A stretch of DNA of 64,000 nt from an uncultured Thermodesulfobacteriota bacterium (GTDB taxonomy: Bacteria > Desulfobacterota > JBBIRW01), in contig CAZDGM010000001.1 in the NCBI GenBank assembly GCA_964505185.1, positions 263,734 to 327,733 on the forward strand, read 5' to 3'. Of this stretch, positions 3,500 to 54,587 are shown piece after piece. Position numbers and translations under genes: made by a program. The notes under the pieces were generated by a model. It was given only the letters and a program-made list of their open reading frames with translations. It did no database searches and had not been told where the DNA came from. Each line of letters starts with the position of its first letter. Positions within the stretch are counted from its first letter, which is position 1.

Positions 3500-5383
3500 A
3501 TGTGGCGGAAATTCGATAAGGCAGAAACCGTATCCCTTCCTGAAATTTACGAATCAGTGAAGATCCCCCATTACTGGAAATGGTGGAAGCGTCTCTTTGC
3601 TTTCCTTGGTCCTGCATATCTTGTTTCTGTGGGATACATGGATCCGGGTAACTGGGCGACGGATCTTGAAGGGGGAGCGAAATTTGGATACAGGCTCATA
3701 TGGGTTCTCCTTGCGAGCAATCTGATGGCTGTTTTGCTGCAAATGCTTTCTGCTCGTCTGGGTCTTGTCACGAGATGCGATCTCGCACAGGCATGTCGTG
3801 AAGCATATCCGCCTTTTGTATACTATCCTCTGTGGATCATCTGTGAACTTGCAATAGCTGCATGCGATCTCGCTGAAGTCCTTGGAACGGCGATAGGTTT
3901 GAATCTTCTTTTTGGGATTCCGCTTATAATCGGTGTCAGTTTAACAGCTCTTGATACAATCCTTCTCCTCTTTATACAGCGATACGGGATTCGCAAATTT
4001 GAAGGGATGATCCTCGGTCTCGTATTTGTCGTAGGTTGTTGCTTCGTTGTTGAAATCTTTCTTGCTAAACCTGACTTCAGATCAATTATAGGTGGTTTTA
4101 TTCCCACAATTGACAGAGAAAGCCTCTATGTTGCACTGGGCATGCTCGGGGCAACTGTTATGCCACACAACCTTTACCTTCATTCAGCGCTTGTTCAGAG
4201 CAGAGCAGTTGAGCGAACAGATAAGGGCATCCGGGCAGCAGTGCGCTTTAATCTTATAGATACATTTATTGCTCTCAATGCTGCTTTCTTTGTGAATTCA
4301 GCAATACTTGTTCTCTCATCTTCTGTTTTTTATTCTCGAGGTATTGAGGTGGTTGAGATTCAGCAGGCGCACGAACTTCTCTCACCACTGCTGGGAACAG
4401 GTCTTGCCTCTACTGCCTTTGCTGTTGCCCTTCTTGCTGCAGGTCAATCTTCGACACTCACAGGAACACTTGCAGGGCAGGTTGTGATGGAGGGGTTTAT
4501 CCGGATAAAGATTCAGCCATGGGCAAGAAGACTCATTTCTCGATTACTTGCGATCATTCCTGCAGTTATTGTTATTGCAATAAGCGGAAGCCATGGGACA
4601 TACAGGCTTCTTATACTGAGTCAGGTGATTCTCTCTTTGCAGCTTCCCTTTGCAATTGTTCCCCTTATCCAATTCACAAGTGATCGTGAATGGATGGGAA
4701 AATTTGTGAGCCCTCTATGGGTAAGGGTCCTTTCATGGCTTGTTGCACTTTTTATCATAAGTCTTAATGTCTGGCTTGTTTGGGTGACGGTGTCTGAATG
4801 GAGGATGAAAGCTATGTGGGTTGATTTTATAGTAATTCCAATTGGTGCATATTTGATGCTATTATTGGGGTATATGGGATTTGGACCGTTTATTAAGAAA
4901 TTATTAGAAAAGAAACCACCCTCTGTACCGGAACCCGTGCTACCATCCATTCAGGAGGACACTGGGTATGGGAAGATAGGGGTTGCTCTTGAGGTGAGGG
5001 AAACGGACCAAAAGATACTCAAGCATGCACTTGCCCTTGCAACGAGATACAATGCAGAGATTATTCTGATTCATATTGTTGAGAGTGCAACTGCTCAGGT
5101 CTGGGGCGGAACTGTGGAGGATAGGGAAAGAACAGAGGACGAGGATTATCTAATAAAACTTTCAGAAAAGATCAGGGCACAGGGAATAAGGGCGAGTTTC
5201 CGAATAGGATTTGGAAATGCAGCAAAAGGGGTTGTAAAAATAGCGAAAGAAGAGAATCTTGACCTTCTTGTCCTCGGGAGTCATGGCCACAAACATATAA
5301 AAGACTGGATATATGGTTCAACAGTTTCTGCTGTTCAACATGATATAGGTGATATACCCATCCTCGTTGTAAAAGGGACATAA
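3500..5383 (+). CDS. mntH: NRAMP-family divalent metal (Mn2+/Fe2+) transporter MntH fused to a C-terminal universal stress protein (UspA) domain
   Basis: GYMDPGNWATDLEGG (DPGN motif) and 11-12 TM helices. The C-terminal ~140 aa have the Usp fold signature (ILIHIVES..., LLVLGSHGH..., ILVV). Confidence 0.85.
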   Translation: MWRKFDKAETVSLPEIYESVKIPHYWKWWKRLFAFLGPAYLVSVGYMDPGNWATDLEGGAKFGYRLIWVLLASNLMAVLLQMLSARLGLVTRCDLAQACREAYPPFVYYPLWIICELAIAACDLAEVLGTAIGLNLLFGIPLIIGVSLTALDTILLLFIQRYGIRKFEGMILGLVFVVGCCFVVEIFLAKPDFRSIIGGFIPTIDRESLYVALGMLGATVMPHNLYLHSALVQSRAVERTDKGIRAAVRFNLIDTFIALNAAFFVNSAILVLSSSVFYSRGIEVVEIQQAHELLSPLLGTGLASTAFAVALLAAGQSSTLTGTLAGQVVMEGFIRIKIQPWARRLISRLLAIIPAVIVIAISGSHGTYRLLILSQVILSLQLPFAIVPLIQFTSDREWMGKFVSPLWVRVLSWLVALFIISLNVWLVWVTVSEWRMKAMWVDFIVIPIGAYLMLLLGYMGFGPFIKKLLEKKPPSVPEPVLPSIQEDTGYGKIGVALEVRETDQKILKHALALATRYNAEIILIHIVESATAQVWGGTVEDRERTEDEDYLIKLSEKIRAQGIRASFRIGFGNAAKGVVKIAKEENLDLLVLGSHGHKHIKDWIYGSTVSAVQHDIGDIPILVVKGT

Positions 5384-5396
5384 ATAAGCAGGAAAT

Positions 5397-6431
5397 CTAA
5401 TTATTTCTTCTGATCGTTAGAATCATAAGGGCTGCCATAATGATTGATTGAGAGATTACTTTTGCAGGATTTAGCTCAACAGATGGAAGAAGGAATAGCA
5501 ATCTTTCAAGAAATATACCTATAAGTATCAATACCGATATAATTGAGACGATCGATGGAATCGTTTTTGCCTTTCTTGAAAGGAGTGTTAGAAAAGGGAG
5601 GAAGAATAGCGAGGGGAGTATAACAAGCGAGATATTCCTGTAGGGCGATAATTGAGTCCTCACAAACAGAAAGCTTACCTCTTCAGGAATGTTTCCATAC
5701 CAGATGACAAGGAACTGCGCATAGAAAAGTCCTGCCCAAAGTAAGCTGAACCCGAAAATTAGTGTAGCAATATCCCTCAAAGTTTTGATTAAGCCTTCAC
5801 TTGACTGGCTTTCGGTTTTTCTCATAAGAAACAAACATATAATCCCTGAAATTGCAATACCGGAATATATGGATTCAATGAAAAAATAACCTCCAAAGAG
5901 AGTGCTGTACCACGGATATTCGAGAGACATTATCCAGTCAATGGCAATCATTGATTGTGATGCAACAAAGAACGCTATATAGATTGAGCCATAGATGTTT
6001 TTTCTTTCACTATCAATTAATGATTCCCTGGAGAACTTTCGTGCAGATAAAAAGGAAAGAAAAAGCAGGAAGAAGTTTCTTGCTATAAAGAATGGCCTGT
6101 TTAACCATAATCCTTCACTTTTAACCCATGGATATATATCCAGCTCATGAATAAGAAAGAGGAAAAGGATTGAGTGAAGCAATAACAACGGGTAAACGGA
6201 AAGAAGGTATCTCTTCAGCGGAGCTATCCATTTAGCCTTTGCAATATTAGCTGCTGCAACAAGGGCAATGCAGCCCTGCGTGATGGCTATCCAATATGAA
6301 AGAGTGAAGAGAAGTGAACCCTTTGTTATCCCTGCAAAAAACTCAATAGCAACAATAAAAAATCCACCGATAAAGAGATATAAGAAGTAATAGTTAATCC
6401 TCATCTCCTTTTCCATCATCTTCTCCATCAT
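5397..6431 (-). CDS. actF: Alternative complex III membrane subunit, ActF-like (NrfD/PsrC family polytopic protein)
   Basis: Polytopic membrane protein at the distal end of the act cluster. NrfD-like motifs (FLVIWYGNIPEE). Overlaps actD stop. Confidence 0.5.
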   Translation of the reverse strand: MMEKMMEKEMRINYYFLYLFIGGFFIVAIEFFAGITKGSLLFTLSYWIAITQGCIALVAAANIAKAKWIAPLKRYLLSVYPLLLLHSILFLFLIHELDIYPWVKSEGLWLNRPFFIARNFFLLFLSFLSARKFSRESLIDSERKNIYGSIYIAFFVASQSMIAIDWIMSLEYPWYSTLFGGYFFIESIYSGIAISGIICLFLMRKTESQSSEGLIKTLRDIATLIFGFSLLWAGLFYAQFLVIWYGNIPEEVSFLFVRTQLSPYRNISLVILPSLFFLPFLTLLSRKAKTIPSIVSIISVLILIGIFLERLLFLLPSVELNPAKVISQSIIMAALMILTIRRNN

Positions 6432-6849
6432 CTATCACTATTGTGAATCTGTTATCAAATTCCATGGGATTAATAATCCATCGAATATCAGGGAGGCGTG
6501 AGAGTAAAAGGAATCCGAGAAATGATGTGATCGCTCCAAAAAGAATTGTCAATTCAAATGCAATAATAACAAATGCAGGGATGGATATCAGTGGCTTTCC
6601 TCCTGTTATAAGAGGCCAGCTTAAAACTGTATAAGTCGTGAATCCGAAGCCTGTAATAGTTCCAGTGATAGCACCAAGAAGGGTAATGATATTCAGTTTG
6701 CTAACCGGCCTTCCAAGGATCTCTTCTACTTCTTCGACGGGGAAAGGGAGATATATTTGCATCCGATCAGCAGGTACACCTTTTTTTAAAAGCTCCTTAA
6801 GTTTTTCGATAAATTCGTGTTTGTCTTCAAATAAATATTCCTTTTTCAT
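6394..6849 (-). CDS. actD: Alternative complex III subunit ActD (membrane-anchored)
   Basis: About 150-aa protein with a central TM pair. Start ATG overlaps actC stop (ATGA), with GAGG RBS. Position is between actC and actF. The track ORF starts 45 codons upstream without an RBS. Confidence 0.55.
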   Translation of the reverse strand: MKKEYLFEDKHEFIEKLKELLKKGVPADRMQIYLPFPVEEVEEILGRPVSKLNIITLLGAITGTITGFGFTTYTVLSWPLITGGKPLISIPAFVIIAFELTILFGAITSFLGFLLLSRLPDIRWIINPMEFDNRFTIVIDDGEDDGKGDED

Positions 6850-8159
6850 TCGTGAACCTCTTTTAATTCTGTAATGGAAAGGATCGGAAGGACCTTCGCA
6901 AATATGAGAAAAAGCATGAAAAACATTCCGAAACTTCCAAGCGTGATTCCTATAGCAACAGGGCTGAATGATGGGAGTCCCCATGCGTAAGGATCAAAGT
7001 CTCTGGAAAGGGAAGTAACTATTATTACGAATCTTTCCATCCACATACCAACATTAACAAAAAGTGATGATATGAATAAGAATTTTATGTTTCTTCTTAA
7101 TTTTCCTATGAAGAGAAAGAGCGGGATAATGGAGTTGCAGATAATCATTATGGCGAAAAATATCCAGAAATCACCAAATGCCCTGTACCTGAATACTTCC
7201 ATCTCGAATATATTTCCACCATAAAATGCCATGGAGAACTCCACGATATATGAGTAGGTTACTATAAGTGATGTAAGAAGCAGTATTTTAGCGATACTAT
7301 CAAAGTGATCTAAGGTTATATATTTTTCAAGGGAAAAGAACTTTCTCATCGGAACAACAAGCGTTATTACCATTGCTGTTCCAGAAAATATAGCACCAGC
7401 AACAAAATATGGTGCAAATATGGTTGTATGCCAACCAGGAATAATGCTCATAGCAAAGTCCCATGAAACAACAGAATGAACTGAAACAACCAGTGGAGTT
7501 GCAAATGATGCAAGAAACATGTATAGTCTGTTATAGTGCCTCCATTGATCCGGTGTTCCCTGCCATCCAAGTGAGAGGAAAGAGTACAGGCGTTTCTTCC
7601 ATCCCGTTGAATATCTTCTTGCAATAGCGAGATCGGGAATCATACCAACGTAAAAGAAAATAAGGCTTACCGTAAAATAAGTCCCTACAGCGAAAACATC
7701 CCATATAAGCGGGGATCGAAAGTTAACCCAGAGCATTCTCTCATTTGGGTATGGAAGTAACCAGTAGAAAAGCCACGGTCTTCCAAGATGGATTATAGGG
7801 AAGAGTCCGGCAGTCATAATGGCAAAAACGGTCATCGCCTCCGCAGATCTATTGAAACTGCTTCTGAATCCTGCGCGGAATAGAAAAAGAACAGCTGATA
7901 TAAGTGTTCCTGAATGGGCGATTCCAACCCAGAATACGAAATTTGTTATATACATATACCATCCAACAGGATGTGTTTTACCGGAGACACCCATCCCTGT
8001 TTTTATCTGGTAGTACCAGAGAGACATGCCTGTTATAAACAGGATTGCAGAGATGCAAAGGAAGATCCAGTACTGGATATTCGGTTTCTTCATTGCAGCA
8101 AGAACATCCTTTTCAATCTGATAACGAAACTCAATGGCTTTGGAAATTGCGTTATTCAT
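6846..8159 (-). CDS. actC: Alternative complex III quinol-binding membrane subunit ActC (NrfD/PsrC family)
   Basis: About 10 TM helices in an NrfD-family polytopic protein directly after actB. True start MNNAISK has an AAAGAGGAAAAGAG RBS. The longer track ORF would overlap actB by 164 nt. Confidence 0.75.
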   Translation of the reverse strand: MNNAISKAIEFRYQIEKDVLAAMKKPNIQYWIFLCISAILFITGMSLWYYQIKTGMGVSGKTHPVGWYMYITNFVFWVGIAHSGTLISAVLFLFRAGFRSSFNRSAEAMTVFAIMTAGLFPIIHLGRPWLFYWLLPYPNERMLWVNFRSPLIWDVFAVGTYFTVSLIFFYVGMIPDLAIARRYSTGWKKRLYSFLSLGWQGTPDQWRHYNRLYMFLASFATPLVVSVHSVVSWDFAMSIIPGWHTTIFAPYFVAGAIFSGTAMVITLVVPMRKFFSLEKYITLDHFDSIAKILLLTSLIVTYSYIVEFSMAFYGGNIFEMEVFRYRAFGDFWIFFAIMIICNSIIPLFLFIGKLRRNIKFLFISSLFVNVGMWMERFVIIVTSLSRDFDPYAWGLPSFSPVAIGITLGSFGMFFMLFLIFAKVLPILSITELKEVHE

Positions 8160-10968
8160 CTCTTTTCCTCTTTCCAAGATAATATATTGATGGTTCTGTT
8201 CCGAGTTGCTCAAATATGCGATATGAACGGTCTGACTTTGAAAGTCTGTATAGAAATGAATTCTTATCAAGAATATTACCAAATGTAATTGCACGGGTTG
8301 GGCATGTCTGAGCACATGCAGGGATCACTTCCCCATCCCGTATGGACCTGCCTTCGTCCTTTGCTATATCACGTGCCCTTCTTATACGTTGTATGCAGAA
8401 TGTGCACTTTTCCATTACACCTGCCTGCCTTGCCGATACCTCAGGATTTAACATTCTGTCCCTTGGATATTCCCATTCATGAGGATACCAGTTAAATCTT
8501 CTGACCTTATATGGACAGTTATTCGAGCAGTATCTTGTTCCAACACATCTGTTATAGATTTGTGCATTTATTCCTTCAGGATTATGATATGTTGCATAAA
8601 CAGGGCAGACAGGCTCACATGGTGCATAATCACATTGCTGACATAGCATGAGATGGAATCTTATTCCATCCTTTTCATCATAAAATGGCTCAAGCCTGAT
8701 CCAGGACATCTCTCTTCCTTTGAGATGCTCATCAATTCCTACAATAGGAACATTGTTTTCGATATAACAAGCAGCAACACATGCAGAGCATCCTATACAG
8801 AGATCGAGATCGATAGCCATAGCCCATCGGTAATTTTCATGTTTATGTTCAGGATATAAACTCTCTTTGTGTTTTTTATTATTTTCCCTTCTATGTATGG
8901 GATAAGGTATTATACCCCTCCCTTCCTGTGACATTGAGCCTGAAAGGATTGGTATGGAAACCTTTTTTCCCGTTTTTCTTATATTTATACCTTCAATGTA
9001 TGAAAGGATTTCACCGCTTCTGGGATCGGTCAGGCCACTGTAATCTATCGATCCTCCGATCTGGACAATAAATATATCCTCTCCTATTCCTCTCTGAATC
9101 TTTGCAGGAACTCTTATAGACCATCGGTCCTTGCTAATTTCAAGCTCATCCCTTTCTGAGATATTCAATCTTTTTGCCGTTTCCTCTGAAAGGGAGACCC
9201 AGCTTCCATATGATATCGTGCTTATAGGATCTGGAATCTCCTTTAAGAGCTCGAGATCAGAAGATCTCCCATCAAAAAACCTCAGGGAAGGAGAAAAAAT
9301 AAGAAGGGGGGTTTTCATCGCTTCTGGATATTTGAGATCCCTGAGGAAGAGTTGTGCATTCTTTTCATTTAGTGATACCCTTACAGTGGAGGGGTTTTCT
9401 TCATGATAACCTTTTTCGATAAACATGTTTAGAGAATCTTTTCCATATCTTTTCTGGTAATTTCCCAAAACAAAGGATTTAAAATCTTCAGAAACAACTC
9501 TTCCACTTCTCCTCATAATTTCGATGATTAGGTCACCATCCGATTTTGTATTGAAAATGGCTTTTGTTGCAGGCTGCATAAGATTAACAAGTCCTCTTCT
9601 TGGATTTGCATCTCCCCATGATTCAAGAGAGTGAGAAAGAGGGAGGATAAGATCGCATAGTTTTGTTGTCTCATTGAAGGAGTCCGAAAGGGAGATCTTA
9701 AATCTTGCCCTAAGGAGTTTTTCTTTAATTCCAAGATGCGGAGGAAAGATAGAAACAGGATCTGTTTTAAGGAGAAAGAGTAAACCTATATCATTCTCAT
9801 CGATTGTTTTAAGGAGATTAACAAATTCCTCTGTTGTTCCTACCCTTGAGTAATTCTCTTCTCTGCTGAAATCAACAAGGCTACCAATAGATCCTGAAGC
9901 CCACTGGATTAATCCTGAGAGAACAGCCACGTCAAATCCACTGTTACTGCTGGTTGATACGCCGCCTGTTATAAGAAGCGGCTTTTTTGAATTAAGATAA
10001 GCATCCCTTATGAGAAGGATTTCTTCCTCTCTGAGCCCTGTTTTCTCTATCAGGAGATCCATAGAAAGAGGAGGAATTAATTGACCGACTGAAGCAGGAA
10101 TGTTGCCGATTGTTTTTCTTTTTTGAATAGAAGTTAGGATATAAATGAGAAGATATATCTCCGTTCCAGGATTGATTATAAATCTTTTATCAGAACATAT
10201 TCCTGTTAATGAAAGGTGTGGTTCAACATGAAACCACCTCAGGTTATTGTTTTTCCGTGCAATGGAGAATTGAACTGCATGTGAAACGGGACTGATAAAT
10301 GTCTCAAAAATATCAGCACCGATTGTTAAAAGAAAATCAGCATCCTTAATGTTATAGTAAGGTATCGAATATTTGCCGAAAAGAAATGAATTTGCCCTTC
10401 TGATTGCAGAATAATTATATATCTCAAGTTCCGGAAGTCTCTTTATATTGAATTCATGACAGAATTCATCAATGAGTGAGGAGAGGGAACCTGTTGTTCT
10501 TGATGAGAGAAAGAGGTTGTATTTTTTATCGGTCTTATGTTTTTCGATCTCCGAAATTATGGTCTGAAATGCTTGATCCCAGCTTATTGATCTGAAAACT
10601 CCATCCCTGTCCTTAGCCATGGGATTTTTTATACGGTGGGGGTTGTAGAGTCGTGTTATGGAGGCCTGACCCCTTATACATAGTGTGCCATCATTGATGG
10701 GATGATCCGGTATACCTTCAAGCTTTACAGGGTAAATACCCCTTTCCGTATCAAAGATCTTCTCATATGCTTTAACCTGAATCCCGCAGAGGGCAGGGCA
10801 TTCCGTGCAGGTTGTGTTGTAAAATACTGTCTCACCAGGTATGATCTCCTTTTCGGGTGGTATAGCGTAGGAAATGATTTTTCTTATACCTTTGTCAATG
10901 CCACAGGATGTAAGAAATGTTGATCCTGTAATAAAGCCAAGGAACTTCATGAAGTTTCTTCTATTCAT
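8152..10968 (-). CDS. actB: Alternative complex III subunit ActB (Tat-targeted molybdopterin-oxidoreductase-like domain fused to 4Fe-4S ferredoxin domain)
   Basis: Twin-arginine signal MNRRNFMKFLGF...TSCG. The N-terminal ~650 aa are molybdopterin-oxidoreductase fold. The C-terminal has 4x Cys clusters (CIGCSACVAAC, CQQCDYAPC, CPYK...). The 938-aa fused architecture is typical of ActB. Confidence 0.8.
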   Translation of the reverse strand: MNRRNFMKFLGFITGSTFLTSCGIDKGIRKIISYAIPPEKEIIPGETVFYNTTCTECPALCGIQVKAYEKIFDTERGIYPVKLEGIPDHPINDGTLCIRGQASITRLYNPHRIKNPMAKDRDGVFRSISWDQAFQTIISEIEKHKTDKKYNLFLSSRTTGSLSSLIDEFCHEFNIKRLPELEIYNYSAIRRANSFLFGKYSIPYYNIKDADFLLTIGADIFETFISPVSHAVQFSIARKNNNLRWFHVEPHLSLTGICSDKRFIINPGTEIYLLIYILTSIQKRKTIGNIPASVGQLIPPLSMDLLIEKTGLREEEILLIRDAYLNSKKPLLITGGVSTSSNSGFDVAVLSGLIQWASGSIGSLVDFSREENYSRVGTTEEFVNLLKTIDENDIGLLFLLKTDPVSIFPPHLGIKEKLLRARFKISLSDSFNETTKLCDLILPLSHSLESWGDANPRRGLVNLMQPATKAIFNTKSDGDLIIEIMRRSGRVVSEDFKSFVLGNYQKRYGKDSLNMFIEKGYHEENPSTVRVSLNEKNAQLFLRDLKYPEAMKTPLLIFSPSLRFFDGRSSDLELLKEIPDPISTISYGSWVSLSEETAKRLNISERDELEISKDRWSIRVPAKIQRGIGEDIFIVQIGGSIDYSGLTDPRSGEILSYIEGINIRKTGKKVSIPILSGSMSQEGRGIIPYPIHRRENNKKHKESLYPEHKHENYRWAMAIDLDLCIGCSACVAACYIENNVPIVGIDEHLKGREMSWIRLEPFYDEKDGIRFHLMLCQQCDYAPCEPVCPVYATYHNPEGINAQIYNRCVGTRYCSNNCPYKVRRFNWYPHEWEYPRDRMLNPEVSARQAGVMEKCTFCIQRIRRARDIAKDEGRSIRDGEVIPACAQTCPTRAITFGNILDKNSFLYRLSKSDRSYRIFEQLGTEPSIYYLGKRKRDE

Positions 10969-10980
10969 ATATCGCTCCGT

Positions 10981-11493
10981 TCATTTATGGCATGTGAGAC
11001 AATCTGTTGGTGCATCATTTACCCTGTGACATCTCACACACCAGCCCATCTTTAAAGTTCTTACTTTTCTTACCCTGTCCATGATCTGTACTTCACCGTG
11101 GCACTGCGAGCATTCTATCCCCTTCTTTATATGTCTTTTGTGTGAGAAATATACATGATCGGGAAGTTTGTGAATCCGGATCCATTCTATGGGTTTACGC
11201 TGTTCCCAGTATGAAGTAAGTTTCTTTATTTCAGGCCTTTCTGTGGCAACTGCCCTGTGGCAATCCATACATTTCTGGATATGAGGGATTCCCGCATTTT
11301 TTGATTTATCAGCGTAAACATGACAGAAGTTGCAGGGAAGACCAACCTTTGTGACATGTATACGGTGGCTGAAGGCAATGGGCTGAATGGGTGACCCATC
11401 ATAGTAGTAGTTGTAATAGCCCATTGCTAAAAATATGATGGAGAAGATGGATGCATAGCATGAAATGGTGGCAAGAACAAGGGATCTTCTCAC
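10981..11493 (-). CDS. actA: Alternative complex III pentahaem cytochrome c subunit ActA
   Basis: Five CxxCH motifs (CNFCH, CMDCH, CSQCH, CVRCH, CLTCH) in 170 aa with an N-terminal TM anchor. Confidence 0.8.
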   Translation of the reverse strand: MRRSLVLATISCYASIFSIIFLAMGYYNYYYDGSPIQPIAFSHRIHVTKVGLPCNFCHVYADKSKNAGIPHIQKCMDCHRAVATERPEIKKLTSYWEQRKPIEWIRIHKLPDHVYFSHKRHIKKGIECSQCHGEVQIMDRVRKVRTLKMGWCVRCHRVNDAPTDCLTCHK

Positions 11494-11502
11494 ATTCTCC
11501 TC

Positions 11503-12738
11503 CTACTTTTTCTCTCCGATCTCCTTCAGGAGATAGAATGAGACAGCCTCAATTTCATCATCTGGAAGTCCCAGGTTCGGCATTGGAGGATAGGATGGAT
11601 CTTTTTTCACAGGATTCTTTATGAATTTTTTAAGCTCATCAACCTTATTCCTGTAAGATGGAATAACAGCATTTAAAGGAGGACCAACAACCCTTTGGGT
11701 GAAGCTGTGACAGGCTGAGCAGATTGTTTTGAAAACCTTCTCGCCCTTTTCAAGGATTGCCTTCTCATCCAATTCAACCTTTTTCTTTTCAGCCCTTACC
11801 TCTTCTTTAACAGCCTGTGCTTTTGCTAATAATAACATGGTATTTTCTCTATGTGATGTTTCTCTTTCGATATATTCCATGCCGGAAACAATCATAAATT
11901 GCAATATGAAAAGGATGAGTATGCTATATTTGTATTCGGATTTTATTCCATCAAGGCGGTTGTAAAGGAGCCAAATGGAGATAGATGATGCCAGTGTTAA
12001 GAGTATTGATAGCAGAAATATAAAGGGTGATAGAGAAGGCTCAGGGAGGGTATAGATATACCAGAGGGAAAGCGGAGGTATAAAGATAAGCAATATCAGT
12101 GAGGAATAGGTTATGGCATTTCTGAGGTTAAAAAAAACTGCAAAGGTTGAGAAGGCAAATGAAAGCGCAAGAACAATAATCCGCAGGTATCTTACAACCG
12201 CATTCCATGAGATAAGCGGATCAATTGGATTCAAAAATAGATGGACCCTCTCCCTGTTTGATAGTGATGAAAGAACAGATGAGAGGATGTAAAGGGAGAA
12301 AAGCAGTGTCAGGATTGAGAAGATGGATGAAAGCAGTGCGATTGCGGGTTTTGTGCGAATAAGGTTTACTGTTGATCGATAAATATAAAGAAATATAAAT
12401 GAAACGAAGAGAAGGATATTGGAGAATAATGAAAGATTGACGAGATTCTTGTTCTCTATCATACCTGTTTCAATAAAAACAAGGAGTGCTATAATTGGCG
12501 GCAGGAGTCCTGCAAGAAATAAAAGACCCTTGCTCTTTGCAATGGTATTTATGATCGAGTGGGCGAGTTCAGATGAGAAGTGATTAGTTCCCCTGCCTCG
12601 GAGAAGAAGGAGGGAGAGGATCAAATATCCGAGAATAATGGATATGAAGGGGTAGAAGATAACAAATGCAAGTATTGAAATGTATCGAAGCGTTATTATA
12701 TGTTCAGGTTTGATAGCGATGGGATACTCCTGCATCAT
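11503..12738 (-). CDS. Polytopic membrane protein (~8 TM) with C-terminal monohaem class-I cytochrome c domain (CSACH...PPMP)
   Basis: Hydrophobic helices across ~300 aa, then a coiled-coil linker (EEVRAEKKKVELDEKAILEKGEK), then CSACH and a Met ligand region (SYPPMP). Located between coxB and actA. Confidence 0.6.
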   Translation of the reverse strand: MMQEYPIAIKPEHIITLRYISILAFVIFYPFISIILGYLILSLLLLRGRGTNHFSSELAHSIINTIAKSKGLLFLAGLLPPIIALLVFIETGMIENKNLVNLSLFSNILLFVSFIFLYIYRSTVNLIRTKPAIALLSSIFSILTLLFSLYILSSVLSSLSNRERVHLFLNPIDPLISWNAVVRYLRIIVLALSFAFSTFAVFFNLRNAITYSSLILLIFIPPLSLWYIYTLPEPSLSPFIFLLSILLTLASSISIWLLYNRLDGIKSEYKYSILILFILQFMIVSGMEYIERETSHRENTMLLLAKAQAVKEEVRAEKKKVELDEKAILEKGEKVFKTICSACHSFTQRVVGPPLNAVIPSYRNKVDELKKFIKNPVKKDPSYPPMPNLGLPDDEIEAVSFYLLKEIGEKK

Positions 12739-12801
12739 CAGGATTTTAATTTATATTATAGAAAAATAATAAAATTCATTCCCTATTTTAATTTTTTAAT
12801 A

Positions 12802-13395
12802 TCACTGCCCCGCTTCATACCATTTTACAAAGTCCTCTTCCGGCACCACAATTAGCTTTGAAAGCATATAGGAATGTCTGAGACCACAATACTCAGCACA
12901 TAATATATCGTATTCTCCCTGTATGTCTGTTTTAAACCAGAGGTGCGTTTTCATACCGGGGACAGCATCCTGTTTTATTCTTAAGGCGGGTATATATAGG
13001 CTGTGGATTACATCCATTGATGTAATGGTTAGCTTTACTGGCCTGCCGGCTGGCACATAAAGTTGATCGCTTTCTTTTCCATTTTCATACCTGAATGTCC
13101 ATGACCACATGCGTGCCGTAACATTTACATCCATCGATCCTTCGGGTATTTTACCCAGAACCCTATACCCTGTCCATCCGTAATAGAACATCGATAATAC
13201 AAGGATTATCGGGATAATGGTCCATGCGATCTCGAGGTAGGGATTTTCTGTGATATCAGCGGGCACCGGATTTCTCTTTCTGTTGAACCTGATAAGACAG
13301 TAGATCATGAAAACAGTGATTGAAATTAGAAGAAAGACTGAGATACCAGCTATATAGAAGAATGTGTTATCTACTCTTTCTGCAAAATTTTCCAT
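12802..13395 (-). CDS. coxB: Cytochrome c oxidase subunit II (CuA cupredoxin domain; no fused cytochrome c domain)
   Basis: Two N-terminal TM helices. CuA ligands HSLYIP ... CAEYCGLRHSYM. Confidence 0.85.
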   Translation of the reverse strand: MENFAERVDNTFFYIAGISVFLLISITVFMIYCLIRFNRKRNPVPADITENPYLEIAWTIIPIILVLSMFYYGWTGYRVLGKIPEGSMDVNVTARMWSWTFRYENGKESDQLYVPAGRPVKLTITSMDVIHSLYIPALRIKQDAVPGMKTHLWFKTDIQGEYDILCAEYCGLRHSYMLSKLIVVPEEDFVKWYEAGQ

Positions 13396-13403
13396 AAGTA
13401 ACT

Positions 13404-13697
13404 CTACCTAAAAGAGATATCAAAAAATGTGAATCCTATAATTATCGCAAGGGTAATAACAGAAAGAAGGAGCATGAAATGGAATAGGCGATCCTCATAT
13501 TTCAGATGCATAAAGAAGTTAAGAACCAGTAATGATTTGAATGATGCGATTGATAGCGCTGTGAGAACAGCAATTTTTCCGAGATTAAGAGCTGCTATAG
13601 TGACTGTAAATGCGGTGAGAACAATGAGAGATATCCACACGAAAAAATATGTCAAAAAGCCTGCTTCGTTTCTTTCGTTTTCCATTCCGATCCTCAT
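13404..13697 (-). CDS. coxD: Cytochrome c oxidase subunit IV (small bacterial CoxD/CtaF type)
   Basis: A 97-aa protein with 3 TM helices between coxB and coxC, overlapping coxC by 4 nt. Confidence 0.55.
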   Translation of the reverse strand: MRIGMENERNEAGFLTYFFVWISLIVLTAFTVTIAALNLGKIAVLTALSIASFKSLLVLNFFMHLKYEDRLFHFMLLLSVITLAIIIGFTFFDISFR

Positions 13698-14323
13698 GTT
13701 ATCAGATAAAAAAGTGGAAAGAGGTATATCCAGATTATATCCACAAAATGCCAGTATAGCCCTGTATTTTCAAGTTTAACAAAGTCATGCCTGTTTATAT
13801 TTTCCCTAAGGAGTAATACAAAAATTATGAAAAGGACAAAGATGCCTGCAAGAACATGTAAGGCATGAAGCCCTGTCATAACAAAGTAAAGATTGTAAAA
13901 AAGGACAACAGATGAATCTATGCCGGAAAGTGCTCCTGATCCCGGATAGATACCGTGTTCAATCTTATCCCCCCATTCAAAATATTTGTTCAAAAGGAAT
14001 AAAAGTCCGAAGATGATGGTGATCATGAGAAAGGAAGCGGATCTTATTCTACTTCCATTTTTTATAGAGAATATCGAGATAGCCATTGTGAGGCTGCTTG
14101 TAAGAAGAATTATTGTGTTTAACGTGCCTATTGCTATGTTGAGATCCTTTGCTGCAACATGGAATGAGATGGGATACTTTGCCCTGTATGTGGAATAAAG
14201 GAGAAAAAGACCGCCAAAAAGAAGCATTTCCGTAAATAAAAATAACCACATACCGATCTTTGAGCCAGTATAATCAGTGTGTTTTTCAACAGAAAAAGAA
14301 GTAATACCGAACATGAAAATCAC
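13694..14323 (-). CDS. coxC: Cytochrome c oxidase subunit III
   Basis: 209 aa with 5 TM helices and C-terminal [11 protein letters not shown], the conserved HxVDVVW motif. Confidence 0.8.
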
Positions 14324-15945
14324 CTTTTGAAATCATAGGGTCCTGCGCTGACAGCAGGTATATGCTCGAAGTTCTCAGGGGGCGGAGGAGACTGTATCTG
14401 CCATTCAAGCGTGCTTCCACCCCATAGATTATGTTCTGCCTTTTCACCATATTTCAGAGAATATATAAAATTGTAAAACATAATGATAAGACCAGTTGCA
14501 AGGATCCAGGAGCCAATGGTTGACATCAGATGAAGGGTATGGAATCTCGGAAGATAGTCATAATATCTCCTCGGCATTCCCTCCCATCCAAGAATAAACA
14601 TGGGAAAGTATAAAATATTAAAACCTGTAAAAAGAATGAGCCAGGCAATATTTGCAAGTCTTATGTTATACATCTTTCCAAACATCTTTGGAAACCAGTA
14701 GTGAAGTGCACCGAAAAAGGCAAAGGCAGTTCCCCCAAACATCGTATAATGGAAATGGCCAACGACAAAATATGTATCATGTATATGAACATCAGTGGCG
14801 AGTGCTCCATTTATAAGACCAGTTAAACCACCTATGGAAAACGCAAATATGAACGAGAGTGCATATAGCAGTGGAGGGGCAATTTCAATTGATCCTCCAT
14901 ACAGTGTTGCAACCCAGTTGAATGTCTTAACTCCACTTGGTATTGCTACGAGAAATGTTAACAGGGAAAATACCCACTTTGCAGTATCACTCATTCCGCT
15001 TGTGAACATGTGGTGTCCCCATACAAGATATCCAACGAGTGCTATGGAAAGACTCGAGAATGCTATTGCCTTATATCCGAATATATTCTTCTTTGAAAAA
15101 ACGGGGATTATTTCTGAGATAACACCCATCGCAGGAAGGATCATTATGTAAACAGCAGGGTGTGAATAGATCCAGAAGAGATGCTGAAACAGTAGAGGAT
15201 CACCCCCCTTTGCTGGATCAAAAAAGCCGATCCCAAAAAATCTTTCGCATATGATAAGAATTAGTGTTATTCCAACAACAGGTGTTGCAAGAAGCTGGAC
15301 CCAGCCTGTTGCATAAAGTGACCATACAAAAAGGGGCATGCGGAACCATCCCATTCCAGGTGCCCTCAATCTGTGTATGGTTGTCACGAAATTAAGTCCT
15401 GTTAGTATTGAGGAAAATCCAATTAAAAATGCACCCAAGACAGCGAGGGACACATTTGTTCCTGTTCTTATGCTGTATGGTGCATAGAACGTCCATCCTG
15501 TGTCAATAGGACCACCGCCTGTAAAAAGTGATATCACAGCAAGTGTTGCTCCTCCCATGAAGAAATACCATGACAGAAGATTTATCCTCGGAAACGATAC
15601 ATCCCTTGCACCTATGTGTATGGGAAGAAAGAAATTCCCGAAGGCAGCAGGTATTCCAGGGATAACAAATAAAAATATCATTATGACCCCATGAAGGGTG
15701 AATATGGAATTATACGTCTGCGGACCCATTATGGTTCTTCCTGGTGCAATAAGCTCAAGCCTCATAAGAAGTCCAAGGATAACACCGATAGAGAAGAAAG
15801 AAAGCATGGAGAGAAGGTAGAGTATGCCTATCCTCTTATGGTTCGTTGATAGGATCCAGGAAAGTATCCCCTGATATCTCCCTTTTTCTTCAAGGAAGCT
15901 AATCGTGTGCAGTCTCTGGAGATTGGACTCCTTTGTCATATTCAA
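14320..15945 (-). CDS. coxA: Cytochrome c oxidase subunit I (haem-copper oxidase catalytic subunit)
   Basis: 541 aa with 12 TM helices. Motifs [34 protein letters not shown]. Confidence 0.9.
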
Positions 15946-16754
15946 CCCCTGCTTCCCCTGTTTCTCAAAAGAAATATTGAGAATCCAGCAAGTGAAAGTA
16001 GTATGATTACACCTCCAATCCTTGTTATATTAAGCACGTATCTCCTGGCTTCGGGATCATAACTGTAGCAAAGAAGAAGCACTTTATTTATAGTCGCCCC
16101 CGTTCTTCCTTCAGATGCCTCCGCAATAGCCATTTTCAGATCGAATGGAAGGAGTGCCTTTCCAGGAACATAACGGATAATTTTACCGTCACTTGAAAGA
16201 ACAAGCAGTGAAACAGGATGTATAAATTCATCACCCTTTCTTTTGAAATTAAACCCGATTGCATCGGTGAGCCTTTTAATCGATTCTCTATCTCCTGTGA
16301 GAAATTTCCACGAATCATCAGGAATCTTTTTCTTGATAATCTTTTGAAAAATCCTCTTTTTTTCAAATGCCTTTTCCGGCTTATCATTTTCATCAAAGCT
16401 AAATGTTATTATGGAGTAGTCTCTTCCTGGTTCTGCCTCCATCTTATCAACGAGACGTGCAATCTCTTCAAGGAGAAGATTGCAAACATTGGGACAGCTG
16501 AAGTAAACAGGAGAAAGTATCACCGGCGTCTTAAAGAGTTCCTTGATCGAAACAACCTTCCCATTCTCATCGGTAAAAACCAGATCCAGAGGGATAAATT
16601 TACCTGTTCTATCCTCTATAATTACCTCTTCCCTCTCTTCCATCGCATCCGTATGTGCCTTTAACGGATATGTGGAAGAGATTAACAGAATAGTTATTAT
16701 GGGCAGATATTCTCCTAAGAATGCAAAGATTTTTCGCAAAAATACTCTTATCAT
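15942..16754 (-). CDS. sco: SCO1/SenC family copper chaperone (thioredoxin-like, CPNVC motif)
   Basis: N-terminal TM helix. FSCPNVC (CxxxC), a conserved H later. First gene of the cox operon, overlapping coxA start. Confidence 0.75.
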
Positions 16755-16876
16755 CTCCAGAGATTAATATAATCACTGAATCGCCCAGAATCAATCACTG
16801 GCAAGGAGGTCATTTAATTGAGGGAGATCGTATCATATAATAAAAAATTGGGTTGATATTGGAAAAGGAGGTTTTC

Positions 16877-17278
16877 ATGAAGGGTGTAGTATTGTTACTT
16901 TCAAGGGTATTTATTTCGATTATCTTTATCATTTCATGTATAACAAAGATAATCGACCCATCAGGGACGATAAACTATATGAGGGCATATGGAATGCCTT
17001 ATCCGGGTTTTTTCCTAATAGGTGCAATTTTACTCGAGGGGATCGGAGGTCTTTCCCTTCTACTTGGAATCAGGACAAAATGGGGAAGTTTAATGCTGCT
17101 GATCTTTTTAATACCAACAACAATAATCTTCCATACAGACTTCTCTCAGCGGCTTCAGGCAATCATGTTTTTAAAAAATCTTGCGATAATGGGTGGTCTG
17201 TTAACATACCTCTATGCTGAACCTGGCCCATTGAGTTTGGATTATAGATTTTTGAAAGAATATAAAGGAGAATCCTGA
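16877..17278 (+). CDS. doxX: DoxX family membrane protein
   Basis: Four-TM DoxX-like hydrophobic profile. AAGGAGG RBS before ATG 16877. Stop overlaps ndh start (TGATG). Confidence 0.7.
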   Translation: MKGVVLLLSRVFISIIFIISCITKIIDPSGTINYMRAYGMPYPGFFLIGAILLEGIGGLSLLLGIRTKWGSLMLLIFLIPTTIIFHTDFSQRLQAIMFLKNLAIMGGLLTYLYAEPGPLSLDYRFLKEYKGES

Positions 17279-18537
17279 TGCCTGAAGCCCCAAGGATTGT
17301 TATAATAGGCGCTGGTTTTGGTGGACTGTGGGCACTGAAATCGCTGAGTAGAATAGATGCAGAGATAGTTCTTATAGACAGGAATAATTATCATACCTTC
17401 TTTCCACTTCTATATCAAATTGCTGCCTCAGAGCTTGAACCCGAGGATATTGTCTATCCTGTAAGGAGTATTCTAAGAAAATTTCAGTCAGTAAAGTTTA
17501 TAATGGGTGAGGTAAAGGGTATCGATATAAAGAAAAGAATGATTGTTGGTGATGACTTCACTATTGGCTATGATTACCTGGTAATCGCATCAGGAAGCAT
17601 ATCGAATTTTTTTAATGTGAAGGGTGCAGCCGAATATAGTTTTCCCTTAAAGACGCTGGATGATGCCATTTACCTAAGGAACCATATACTCTCATGCTTT
17701 GAACATGCAGTTCACGAAAGGGATGGGGGAAAGAGAGGAAGGATGCTTACATTCTGTATAGTTGGAGGTGGCCCAACAGGTGTGGAGTTTGCAGGAGCGC
17801 TGGCAGAGCTTATAAGGGGTCCTATTGCAAAGGATTTTCCATCCATTGATATGAGTGAAGTAAAACTGATCCTCATTGAGGCCGGAGGGTTTCTTCTCCC
17901 TGGCATCCCGGAGAAACTGTCCCGTTATACAGCTGAAAGACTTAAATCAATGGGTGTTGATGTAAGATTGAACAGTATTGTTACGGAGATAGGGGCTGAT
18001 TATATTTTAATAAAGGAAGGGAAGAGGATTGATACAGAGACTGTTGTATGGACAGCAGGTGTTCGTGGAAGCAGATTAGCAGAGGAATCAGGTTTGAAAA
18101 CTATTAAAGGTGGAAGGGTTCCTGTTCTGCCCACACTTCAGGTGATGGAAGATCAAAGGGTTTATGTTATAGGCGATCTTGCTTATCTTGAGGAAGATGG
18201 AAAAGTTCTTCCCATGATTGCCCCTGTTGCAATTCAGCAGGGACTCCAGACAGGAAGAAACATAGCTTGTCAGATTCATGGCACTGATCCTATTCCTTTC
18301 AGATATAATGATAAGGGAACAATGGTTACAATAGGCCGCAACAAGGCTGTTGCACATCTGAGGGGTTTTGGATTTACTGGTTTCCCTGCGTGGGTAATAT
18401 GGCTTAGTGTTCATCTTTTTAACCTTATCGGATTCAGAAACAGGCTTATAGTTTTGATAAACTGGGCATGGGATTATATCTTTTATGAAAGGGCAATAAG
18501 ATTAATACTTCCAAAAAACATGAAGGTAAAAGGATGA
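17278..18537 (+). CDS. ndh: Type II NADH:quinone oxidoreductase (NDH-2) / FAD-dependent pyridine nucleotide-disulfide oxidoreductase
   Basis: [12 protein letters not shown] dinucleotide fold. HTFFPLLYQ motif. Second GG motif [14 protein letters not shown]. Confidence 0.75.
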
Positions 18538-18707
18538 TCGATACATTTTTGAGATACAGGTGCACAGTCTGTGGATATGTTTATGATCCTGAGAAGGGGG
18601 ATCCGGAATCAGATGTTAGAGAAGGGACACCCTTTGATCAACTTCCCGAAGACTGGGTCTGTCCCGTCTGTGGGGCACCCAAGAGCGAATTTGTATGCGA
18701 AATATAA
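18534..18707 (+). CDS. Rubredoxin (57 aa)
   Basis: [57 protein letters not shown] has two CxxCG knuckles. ATG overlaps ndh stop (ATGA). Not in the ORF track because it is under 60 aa. Confidence 0.85.
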
Positions 18708-18786
18708 TCAGAATATGATTTCGCTCATAGATTTAGTCCGAAGATGGATTTAACATGTTGAAAATTTCAGATGGGAGGTTTTCAAT

Positions 18787-19350
18787 ATGAAACCAACTGA
18801 ACAACTTAAAGAGGAACATAAGGCAATAAAGCTTATGCTAAAAATCCTGGAGAAGGTTTGTGAGATGCTTCAGAAAAACGAGAGGGTAAAGTCAAATGAT
18901 ATCGAAAAGATTATCGATTTCATCAGAACATTTGCCGATAGGTGTCACCATGGGAAGGAGGAGGACCTTCTATTCCCTGCCTTTGAGGAGTTGGGCATTC
19001 CCAAGGAAGGGGGTCCAATCGGTGTTATGCTTAATGAACATGAAATGGGTCGGAGTTATCTGAGGGGTATGAATGATGCCTTTTCGAGATACAGGGGTGG
19101 TGATGAAAAGGCTTCTGCAGATCTTGTAAAAAACGCAAGGGGCTATATTTCACTCCTTACTGATCACATCTACAAGGAGGACAACATCCTTTACCCTATG
19201 GGTGAGATGCGCCTTTCGGTTGAAAAGGAGAAGGAGCTTTTGGAGAATTTTGAAAAGATTGAGAGGGAGAGGATCGGTCCAGGAAAACATGAGGAATATC
19301 AAAGGCTTTTGCATCATCTAAGTGAAGTCTATCTTGGTGAACATTACTGA
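18787..19350 (+). CDS. Hemerythrin-like (HHE cation-binding domain) protein
   Basis: H..HHGKEEDLLFPAFEE, NEHEMGRSYL and LLTDHIYKEDN fit the hemerythrin/HHE His/Glu ligand pattern. GGAGG RBS. Confidence 0.7.
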   Translation: MKPTEQLKEEHKAIKLMLKILEKVCEMLQKNERVKSNDIEKIIDFIRTFADRCHHGKEEDLLFPAFEELGIPKEGGPIGVMLNEHEMGRSYLRGMNDAFSRYRGGDEKASADLVKNARGYISLLTDHIYKEDNILYPMGEMRLSVEKEKELLENFEKIERERIGPGKHEEYQRLLHHLSEVYLGEHY

Positions 19351-19383
19351 AGGAGAAATTTGTTGCAGATAAAAAAATTTATA

Positions 19384-19413
19384 TTGAATGATATGGATAT
19401 CTCCTGCTATAAT
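19384..19413 (+). promoter_or_regulatory. Sigma70-like promoter for bfr (TTGAAT-18-TATAAT)
   Basis: TTGAAT at 19384-19389 and a perfect TATAAT at 19408-19413, about 55 nt upstream of the bfr start. Confidence 0.45.
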
Positions 19414-19469
19414 GTGCAGAGTATCCTATCAGAGGTATACATTTGTATACAGAAATAAAGGAGGTATCC

Positions 19470-19907
19470 ATGTCAAGAGAGAAACTTATAAAGGCACTAA
19501 ATGATGATCTCGCACTGGAACTTGCTGCTATAACACAGTATATGTGGCATCATGTTATGGCAGAAGGACTGGAAAGCCCTGAGATTTCCGAGATGTTTAG
19601 AAAGATTGCCATCGATGAGATGAAACATGCTGAGAAACTTGCAGAGAGGGTAAACTACCTTGGTGGAACACCTATTACAAAACCGGGAGAGATAAAGGTT
19701 GGTGGTGATCTCAAAAAGATGATAAAAGATGACATCGATGGCGAAAGGATGGCAATAAAGCTGTACAAAGAACATCTGAAGCTTGCAGAGGAAACAGGTG
19801 ATCCTGTGACAAAGAGAATCCTTGAGGAGATTATAATGGATGAAGAAGGGCATGATGATAAATTCAGTGCCATCCTCAAAATTAAGACCCTTGCCGAAGA
19901 ACAATGA
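19470..19907 (+). CDS. bfr: Bacterioferritin (Bfr family ferritin-like di-iron protein)
   Basis: Aligns to Bfr through the LN..LA.ELAAI.QY..H block, IDEMKHAE (haem-axial Met position) and DEEGH. AAGGAGG RBS before ATG 19470. Confidence 0.75.
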   Translation: MSREKLIKALNDDLALELAAITQYMWHHVMAEGLESPEISEMFRKIAIDEMKHAEKLAERVNYLGGTPITKPGEIKVGGDLKKMIKDDIDGERMAIKLYKEHLKLAEETGDPVTKRILEEIIMDEEGHDDKFSAILKIKTLAEEQ

Positions 19908-19913
19908 TCAAGA

Positions 19914-19951
19914 GGGGAGGGATCTGTGATAGGAAATATGGATCCCTCCTT
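19914..19951 (+). terminator. Hairpin (9-bp GGAGGGATC stem, 16-nt loop) after bfr; possible terminator lacking a U-tract
   Basis: GGAGGGATC (19916-19924) pairs with GATCCCTCC (19941-19949). The downstream sequence is not T-rich. Confidence 0.3.
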
Positions 19952-20076
19952 CCCGCATATTAAAGATATTTAATCTTAGAGAAGGTATTGAATTTAGGAA
20001 GATCCATTGATATTTATTATTTTAAGTTTTAATGCTATCGCTAAGTAAAAATACAAAGAATCAAAAGGAGGATCTT

Positions 20077-20655
20077 ATGAGCTACAATCCAAAAGATTAC
20101 AGCAGGCTTATAGGTATTGAAGGCTTCAGTGAAACACTGCTCAAGAATCACTTCACCCTTTATCAGGGATATGTAACAAACACAAACAAATTAATTGATA
20201 CGTTAAACAGTATGTTGAAAGATGGGAAGGCGGGAACTCCCGAGTATGCGGAGCTCAAAAGGAGGCTTGGATGGGAATTCAATGGGATGAGGCTTCACGA
20301 ATATTACTTTGAAAATCTCGGTGGCAAGGGCGGAATAAAGAAGGAAAGCAGGATCGCAAGAAAGATTGCCGAGGATTTTGGAAGCTATGAGCAATGGGAG
20401 AGGGATTTCAAATCATGCGGGACAATGAGGGGTATTGGCTGGGTGATACTTTATCAGGATCCTGCAAATGGAAAGCTCATAAATTTCTGGATAAACGAAC
20501 ATGACGTTTCTCATCCTGCTGGATGTAATCCTATCCTAATAATGGATGTCTTTGAGCACGCATTCATGATAGATTATGGATTAAAGAGGGCAGATTATAT
20601 TGAGGCATTTTTCAGAAATATAAACTGGGATGTTGTTGAAGGAAGGTTAAAGTAG
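20077..20655 (+). CDS. sod: Fe/Mn-family superoxide dismutase (divergent N-terminus)
   Basis: C-terminal DVFEHAFMIDYGLKRADYIEAFFRNINWDVV matches the SOD DVWEHAYY signature. All four metal-ligand positions appear retained, but the HHxKHH gateway is replaced by NHFTLYQ. AAGGAGG RBS at ATG 20077. Confidence 0.75.
   Translation: MSYNPKDYSRLIGIEGFSETLLKNHFTLYQGYVTNTNKLIDTLNSMLKDGKAGTPEYAELKRRLGWEFNGMRLHEYYFENLGGKGGIKKESRIARKIAEDFGSYEQWERDFKSCGTMRGIGWVILYQDPANGKLINFWINEHDVSHPAGCNPILIMDVFEHAFMIDYGLKRADYIEAFFRNINWDVVEGRLK

Positions 20656-54463: not shown

Positions 54464-54587
<124 letters not shown>

Follow-up and report, generated by a model that had tools for sequence, protein, structure and literature searches.

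The locus described here raises the question of how electrons pass from an alternative complex III (ACIII) to the oxidase encoded beside it. Cytochrome c oxidase requires a c-type donor, and how ACIII passes electrons to its oxidase is unsettled, with the three solved complexes differing in ActA and ActE. We analyzed a 64-kb stretch of DNA from an uncultured Thermodesulfobacteriota bacterium (the whole stretch is hereafter the window, and all coordinates refer to it), in which a gene for a polytopic membrane cytochrome c of 411 amino acids (aa), hereafter the target, lies between the cox genes of an oxidase and the act genes of ACIII. The reading that we consider probable is that the target is the last electron carrier between ACIII and the A2-type haem-copper oxidase and most likely a subunit of their supercomplex. 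We infer haem incorporation, both electron-transfer steps and the physical association with the two complexes from genomics.

The open reading frame (ORF) of the target was kept full-length in hundreds of protein clusters in homologue searches and is therefore more than a chance reading frame. The initial annotation had described an ORF of 411 aa with about eight transmembrane (TM) helices and a C-terminal CSACH...PPMP domain, encoded at the junction of ACIII and oxidase, and this description was borne out by the ORF itself, by hydropathy, by Pfam and by the position of the gene between coxB and actA. Pfam recognised a cytochrome c domain alone (aa 329-404; PF13442 and PF00034, above gathering cut-offs) and NCBIfam agreed, while the first 328 aa had no Pfam or NCBIfam match. 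The haem site was almost invariant among 131 relatives (C340 99%, C343 99%, H344 100% and M386 98%). The target has the features of a class I c-type cytochrome, namely the CxxCH motif, a C-terminal axial Met and a predicted periplasmic haem domain, and comparison with PDB sequences and folds showed this domain to resemble c551/c552/c555/c6-type cytochromes and the Rhodothermus marinus cytochrome c. The target is a membrane-integral cytochrome c with a predicted periplasmic His/Met haem site.

A six-frame scan of the 64 kb for CxxCH returned ActA and the target, and no other ORF with this motif. The ACIII operon has no actE, as no CxxCH ORF was present from actB through actF (5397-10968). The initial annotation had also called CoxB a bare CuA domain of 197 aa, and this was confirmed: CoxII scored 186 bits against TIGR02866, has the COX2 TM hairpin and a CuA domain with an intact H...CxExCGxxHxxM motif, and showed no CxxCH in its translation. 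Because CoxII has no haem domain, ActA accounts for five haems, ActE is absent and there is no other CxxCH, the target is the only candidate donor encoded in the 64 kb.

In the proposed mechanism, menaquinol would be oxidised at ActC and electrons would move through the [3Fe-4S] cluster of ActB to the five ActA haems, and these steps through ActA follow published ACIII structures as summarised in PMC8552683. From the ActA haems the electrons would pass to the periplasmic His/Met haem c of the target, and from this haem to the CuA of CoxII and on to the binuclear centre. These last two transfer steps are proposed because the window encodes no second c-type donor, the haem domain is caa3-like and the gene position is fixed. 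The eight-helix domain would carry no cofactor and would hold the haem domain in the membrane beside its partners, and the target would most likely be a supernumerary subunit lying against, or bridging, ACIII and the oxidase in a supercomplex.

To describe the gene position, the Cox and Act proteins of the window were searched by tblastn against 85 loci, and neighbours were counted in 80 species loci from a scan of one genome per species. The results showed coxB or ctaB directly upstream of the family gene in 63 of the 80 loci and actA directly downstream in 29. Six loci had actA downstream with no cox genes nearby, and here the gene headed an actABCDF operon. Neither cox nor act was adjacent in two loci, so that 78 of the 80 lay at cox and/or act genes. 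In the window, the GTG start of actA, with a GGAGGAG Shine-Dalgarno sequence, lies 9 nt past the stop codon of the target. Two cluster orders were found, which are circular permutations of each other, and the family gene followed coxB-ctaB in both. The type A order, in Ignavibacteria and Melioribacter, is ActB-ActC-ActD/E fusion-ActF-309-aa cytochrome c-SCO1-CoxI-III-IV-II-CtaB-target. The type B order, in Calditrichia, Latescibacterota, Krumholzibacteriia and the clade of the window, is SCO1-CoxI-III-IV-II-(CtaB)-target-ActA-B-C-D-F, without ActE. In five Calditrichia loci (L008-L012), ctaB and the family gene are set apart by about 4 kb of inserted DNA, and the family gene still adjoins actA; the insertion (about 5900-9600 in L009) holds ORFs resembling 2-oxoacid dehydrogenase E1/E2. 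Two Ignavibacteria metagenome-assembled genomes (MAGs), L071 (5338-18100) and L033, encode a 423-aa member after a molybdenum cofactor (Moco) operon (MoaA, MoaC, MOSC, MoeA and MobA), close to a hemerythrin, a porin, two MFS transporters (one fused to Usp) and, on the other strand, an ActB-like Fe-S/molybdopterin match. It may be a paralogue that works with an anaerobic reductase.

We then counted the haems of each chain. ActA had five in every locus where it was seen, and ActE was seen only as the type A ActD-E fusion. The C-terminal haem domain of CoxII (CoxII-c) was present in 19 type B loci and absent in 49 others, which include all type A loci and the clade of the window. The number of monohaem modules per chain was three in type A (ActE, the 309-aa protein and the target) and two in most of type B (the target and CoxII-c), whereas the chain of the window had one, the target alone. 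A hidden Markov model (HMM) of the haem domain matched 19 out of 19 CoxII-fused cytochrome c domains of related clusters (28-54 bits, median 47.8), scored about 18 bits on the 309-aa cluster cytochromes and matched none of 33 ActE domains at E <= 10. Similarly, a PDB sequence search with the haem domain returned no ActE chain (6btm/6f0k) at E <= 1. The HMM scores therefore identify the 'c' of caa3 oxidases as its nearest relative, so that the target resembles a caa3-type 'c' supplied in trans.

The protein had been regarded in the initial annotation as a replacement for the missing CoxII domain. This stood for the window but not as a general rule, because relatives with CoxII-c or ActE retain the family gene: the 19 related clusters with the CoxII-cytochrome c fusion keep it, and Ignavibacteria keep it alongside the ActD-ActE fusion and the 309-aa cytochrome c. 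The target haem domain is homologous to the cytochrome c domain of caa3-type CoxII (Thermus, Rhodothermus), and both are class I His/Met haem c domains next to CuA. However, the target haem is on a separate eight-helix protein, which coexists with CoxII-c fusions in some lineages. With ActE the target shares a monohaem c encoded with ACIII that would take electrons from the ActA haem wire, and the family gene lies directly before actA in ACIII operons without ActE. In contrast, ActE is encoded between actD and actF and is anchored by a lipid or a single helix, while the target is encoded upstream of actA and has eight TM helices, with no lipobox and no detectable specific sequence similarity to ActE.

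Hydropathy gave eight TM segments (aa 22-40, 71-89, 99-121, 133-151, 183-205, 208-231, 240-258 and 270-290). The same number was found in two AlphaFold models of the target, the second of which was built from 131 homologues (pLDDT 93.9, pTM 0.86). The mean number of Lys and Arg residues over 131 members was 5.8, 3.3, 1.5 and 2.1 for the inside loops 1-2, 3-4, 5-6 and 7-8, and 1.0, 0.3, 1.1 and 0.3 for the outside segments, giving family totals of about 12.6 inside and 2.8 outside, with the same bias in the window protein itself. By the positive-inside rule, this bias therefore predicts that both termini and the haem domain are periplasmic. A single long helix (297-338, pLDDT about 90) linked TM8 to the haem domain in the AlphaFold model. 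The linker had previously been described as a charged coiled coil; the charged helix was found, but the coiled coil was not, since the model has one long helix. The distance from TM8 to CxxCH was kept at 35-57 residues (median 45) across the family. Together, the single-helix connector and the high pTM of the model suggest that the relay is held in place and is not an arm that swings.

The membrane domain showed no match to Pfam at E <= 1 with 23 members, and its profile showed no match to PDB sequences at E <= 10. Comparison of the N-terminal part with the known families considered in the initial annotation (Caa3_CtaG, ActE) likewise gave no Pfam or NCBIfam family; the protein is not a recognised assembly factor, and its axial Met386, conserved at 98%, is in place. 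Among 131 sequences the conserved positions of the membrane domain were S42, P80, Q90, Y120, G138, W165, P221, P232, Y259 and D288, and the conserved residues were mostly Pro, Gly, Ser and aromatic. Apart from the start Met, no His, Cys or Met was conserved in aa 1-295 (H13 reached 67%). The window protein carries E90, V165 and E288 where the family consensus is Q90, W165 and D288. Mean pairwise identity was 25% for the membrane domain versus 47% for the haem domain, and such fast evolution, together with the missing ligand set, is as expected of a scaffold. Roles corresponding to haem A synthase, CtaG/CopD, CcsA and CcdA were rejected on the basis that there are no conserved His, Cys or Met ligands. 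NrfD-like kinship to ActC and ActF was also rejected, with hhalign probabilities of 0.5% and 1.2% against 100% for the ActC-ActF positive control; in Foldseek the TM-score against ActF and ActC was about 0.33.

Foldseek against the PDB placed CydB chains from six structures on top for both models, with TM-scores of 0.51-0.59 over about 300 columns, 10-13% identity and borderline E-values of 6.6e-3 to 2e-2. CydB (PF02322) has an eight-helix core of two four-helix bundles, which the modelled domain may share, and likewise carries no haem. On the other hand, the target has no ninth helix, no CydA partner nearby and no sequence or profile similarity to CydB. Profile homology to CydB was unsupported (hhalign 0.4%), although this was a weak test with a CydB profile whose members were all >=85% identical to E. 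coli. We found no cydA or cydB in the family loci and no match to PF02322. We thus read the resemblance of the modelled domain to cytochrome bd subunit II as a real but borderline likeness of fold, not demonstrated homology.

To define the family, we searched with increasing depth. A single-sequence search with the target gave 14 relatives, and a membrane-domain profile search gave 106 clusters at 90% identity, nearly all with cytochrome c Pfam domains and labelled just 'cytochrome c' in the database. An exhaustive HMM search of 1.84 billion representatives gave 661 proteins with E <= 1e-3, of which 271 reached E <= 1e-30. Grouped at 50% identity, the membrane-domain family amounts to 661 clusters, and in nearly all of them the membrane domain is joined to one cytochrome c domain or to two. 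Almost all of the best 150 HMM matches were 420-470 aa long with the membrane domain N-terminal. Tandem dihaem members of about 500-570 aa with the same eight-helix domain were also observed (L017, L020, L025, L052, L068, L077 and P0003 of L005). The scan of one genome per species gave 351 loci, mainly from Ignavibacteria, Melioribacter, Calditrichia, Latescibacterota, Krumholzibacteriia, some Bacteroidota and MAGs labelled Deltaproteobacteria. Apparent stand-alone membrane domains (P0065, P0104, P0105 and P0111) look frameshifted or truncated and were not accepted as a separate architecture, and a CtaB-target fusion in L035 was an artefact of ORF extension in another frame. The family is conserved, undescribed and unannotated for its membrane domain.

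Class I haem domains held at the membrane and passing electrons between complexes are familiar from cytochrome cy of Rhodobacter and c550 of B. subtilis. The same logic, with a class I haem domain wiring complexes at the membrane surface, applies to the N-terminal sixth-haem domain of ActA in Flavobacterium johnsoniae (PMC8552683). In this species CoxII has no haem domain and ActE is dispensable, and the membrane-anchored, mobile extra haem domain of ActA was proposed to feed CuA (PMC8552683). Cytochrome cy, c550 and this ActA domain have one TM helix or a lipid anchor and a flexible linker, whereas the target relies on a bundle of eight helices that is conserved, together with a long helix modelled with confidence.

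The orthologue from Melioribacter roseus has already appeared in the literature. The corresponding cluster is Mros0045-0033, and Mros0033 was called a 'class I soluble c551/c552 cytochrome' and a redox partner of the oxidase (PMC3534657, PMC5492636). Proteomics detected MROS_0033 in aerobically grown cells only, by the peptide FLIDLTTFNK (residues 65-74), with an emPAI of 0.18-0.20 compared to 0.31-0.35 for CoxI, 0.40-0.44 for CoxII and 0.18-0.27 for ActDE (PMC5492636). Exactly these residues, 65-74, read FLIDLVTFNK in the Melioribacter homologue of L069, where they lie in a cytoplasmic loop of the membrane domain. Therefore, MROS_0033 is the orthologue, its membrane domain is translated and the protein is not soluble. 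Like the family gene in other type A clusters, its gene follows ctaB, and the identified peptide lies within the membrane domain; the literature has it as a soluble carrier, in contrast to the polytopic family seen in sequence. The novelty claimed in the initial annotation was accordingly upheld in part: the membrane portion belongs to no recognised family, but the M. roseus orthologue had already been proposed as a redox partner of the oxidase.

Other roles for the target were weighed against that of last carrier. It could be a general membrane-tethered shuttle like cytochrome cy, serving several partners (A-type and cbb3 oxidases, N-oxide or other reductases) rather than a fixed supercomplex subunit. 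The paralogues of L033 and L071 beside Moco, MFS-Usp and hemerythrin genes, away from cox and act, are in keeping with this, as are the tandem dihaem versions, and in the scheme of the M. roseus study MROS_0033 feeds both oxidases (PMC5492636). However, with 78 of 80 loci joined to cox and/or act, a gap of 9 nt between the target stop and actA, and a confident, apparently fixed domain arrangement in the model that would better suit a docked subunit, we regard a general shuttle as unlikely. A biogenesis factor for the oxidase or ACIII, with a membrane domain handling haem O/A or copper and a cytochrome c moving electrons in assembly, would fit a gene that follows ctaB in most clusters and shares its operon with SCO1, and the PDB contains a cytochrome c fused to an SCO1-family protein (2l4d). 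This role is decidedly improbable, given that no Caa3_CtaG, CopD, COX15/CtaA, CcsA or CcdA match was found in Pfam or NCBIfam (Pfam at E = 1, 23 members), that the membrane domain lacks conserved His, Cys or Met residues to bind copper or haem, that abundance in M. roseus was on par with structural subunits and that six loci carry the gene with ACIII only.

We give very little credence to a catalytic eight-helix domain, that is, a bd-like quinol-binding module that reduces the attached haem c and forms a minimal quinol:cytochrome c path parallel to ACIII. Its attraction is that the cytochrome bd subunits CydB and CydA rank first in the structural comparison, that conserved Q90, W165, S177, S237 and D288 cluster at the periplasmic helix ends under the haem domain, and that the domain arrangement was modelled with confidence. 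However, the fold match is borderline (E about 7e-3, TM-score 0.5-0.6, 10-13% identity), there is no profile similarity to E. coli-type CydB or NrfD-type ActC/ActF and no intermediate cofactor, the window protein departs from the consensus (E90, V165, E288), and the gene is always alongside a complete ACIII. A bd-fold descendant that binds menaquinol or a structural quinone under a fixed haem c, acting as a second quinol-to-cytochrome c entry or as a supercomplex gate, is a long shot.

Several points weigh against the target as dedicated last carrier. A soluble cytochrome c encoded outside the 64 kb may be the donor, and the family is known from genomics and one proteomic detection. Retention of the gene where ActE or the CoxII haem domain exists may indicate a role beyond filling a gap, and with the L033 and L071 paralogues beside Moco genes the family is not strictly dedicated to the junction. 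The high pTM of the model suggests a fixed haem domain, not a swinging one, and this would require close docking to its partners. Eight helices far exceed the need for an anchor, and the polar residues Q90, D288 and W165 at the periplasmic helix ends hint at a further role.

The features of the cluster are collected in Table 1. The longest ORFs of ActC (6846-8315, 489 aa) and ActD (6394-6984, 196 aa) overrun the upstream genes. The gene calls in the close relative L001 (an 84% relative labelled 'Deltaproteobacteria bacterium') are 437 and 151 aa, which puts the real starts near 8159 and 6849.

Table 1. Positions of the target, its parts and the neighbouring cox and act genes in the window.
Feature	Position	Strand	Basis
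SCO1	15942-16754	-	Pfam, NCBIfam, translation
CoxI, A2-type by YSHPAV	14320-15945	-	Pfam, NCBIfam, translation
CoxIII	13694-14323	-	Pfam, NCBIfam, translation
CoxIV	13404-13697	-	Pfam, NCBIfam, translation
coxB (CoxII), 197 aa, CuA domain without cytochrome c domain	12802-13395	-	TIGR02866, PF00116, PF02790
Target (family gene), 411-aa polytopic membrane cytochrome c	11503-12738	-	ATG-start ORF; full-length homologues; AlphaFold model
N-terminal eight-TM domain, aa 1-295, predicted N-out/C-out	11854-12738	-	Hydropathy, positive-inside rule; cytochrome bd subunit II-like fold (borderline Foldseek)
Charged helical connector, aa 296-328, from TM8 to haem domain	11755-11853	-	AlphaFold model
Class I cytochrome c domain, aa 329-411, and stop codon	11503-11754	-	PF13442, PF00034
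Haem attachment motif CSACH, aa 340-344	11707-11721	-	Read in sequence
Axial ligand Met386 in PPMP	11581-11583	-	Read in sequence
actA, membrane-anchored pentahaem cytochrome c	10981-11493	-	Five CxxCH; PF14522, QrcA-like
actB	8152-10968	-	Pfam, NCBIfam
actC	6846 to about 8159	-	Pfam, NCBIfam; start set by comparison with L001
actD	6394 to about 6849	-	Pfam, NCBIfam; start set by comparison with L001
actF, 344 aa	5397-6431	-	No Pfam match; NrfD-like by hhalign against ActC, 100%

The spacer between coxB and the target is AT-rich and 63 nt long (12739-12801), and contains a perfect TATAAT at 12766-12761, about 22 nt before the target ATG. It could act as an internal promoter from which the target-ACIII half of the cluster is transcribed. 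However, a scan for consensus promoters and terminators performed no better than on shuffled sequence and did not call the TATAAT of the spacer.

Divergent from SCO1-cox, the window encodes DoxX, a type 2 NADH dehydrogenase (NDH-2), hemerythrin, a ferritin-like protein and an Fe/Mn superoxide dismutase (16853-20655, plus strand), and L001 has an extra 57-aa rubredoxin between NDH-2 and hemerythrin. The oxygen-handling cluster and the operon together therefore make up a short but complete chain from NADH to O2, with oxygen defence at its side. This arrangement is reminiscent of the A2-type oxidases of Desulfovibrio and M. roseus, for which a detoxifying role has been discussed (PMC5492636). Two fusion genes on the plus strand lie next to the end of the ACIII operon and are both kept in L001: one (2160-3473) joins a CobW-type GTPase to an archease domain, the other (3500-5383) an Nramp metal transporter to a universal stress protein domain. 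A lone 5S rRNA gene was detected at 54471-54583 (plus strand; Rfam, 99.9 bits), with no 23S or 16S rRNA match in the window.

With the target as last carrier, the family would be a fourth solution to the transfer of electrons from ACIII to its oxidase, in the form of a polytopic cytochrome c dedicated to the task, which several hundred lineages possess. The lineage of the window would be the minimal case, with one monohaem c between a pentahaem wire and CuA, and its relay is directly testable. MROS_0033, published as a soluble carrier, is redescribed as a polytopic protein, and a membrane-domain family that had been left unannotated is defined, whose fold may be linked to that of cytochrome bd. 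The target would thus represent a new polytopic form of a known class, the membrane-anchored cytochromes c connecting complex III-type enzymes with oxidases.

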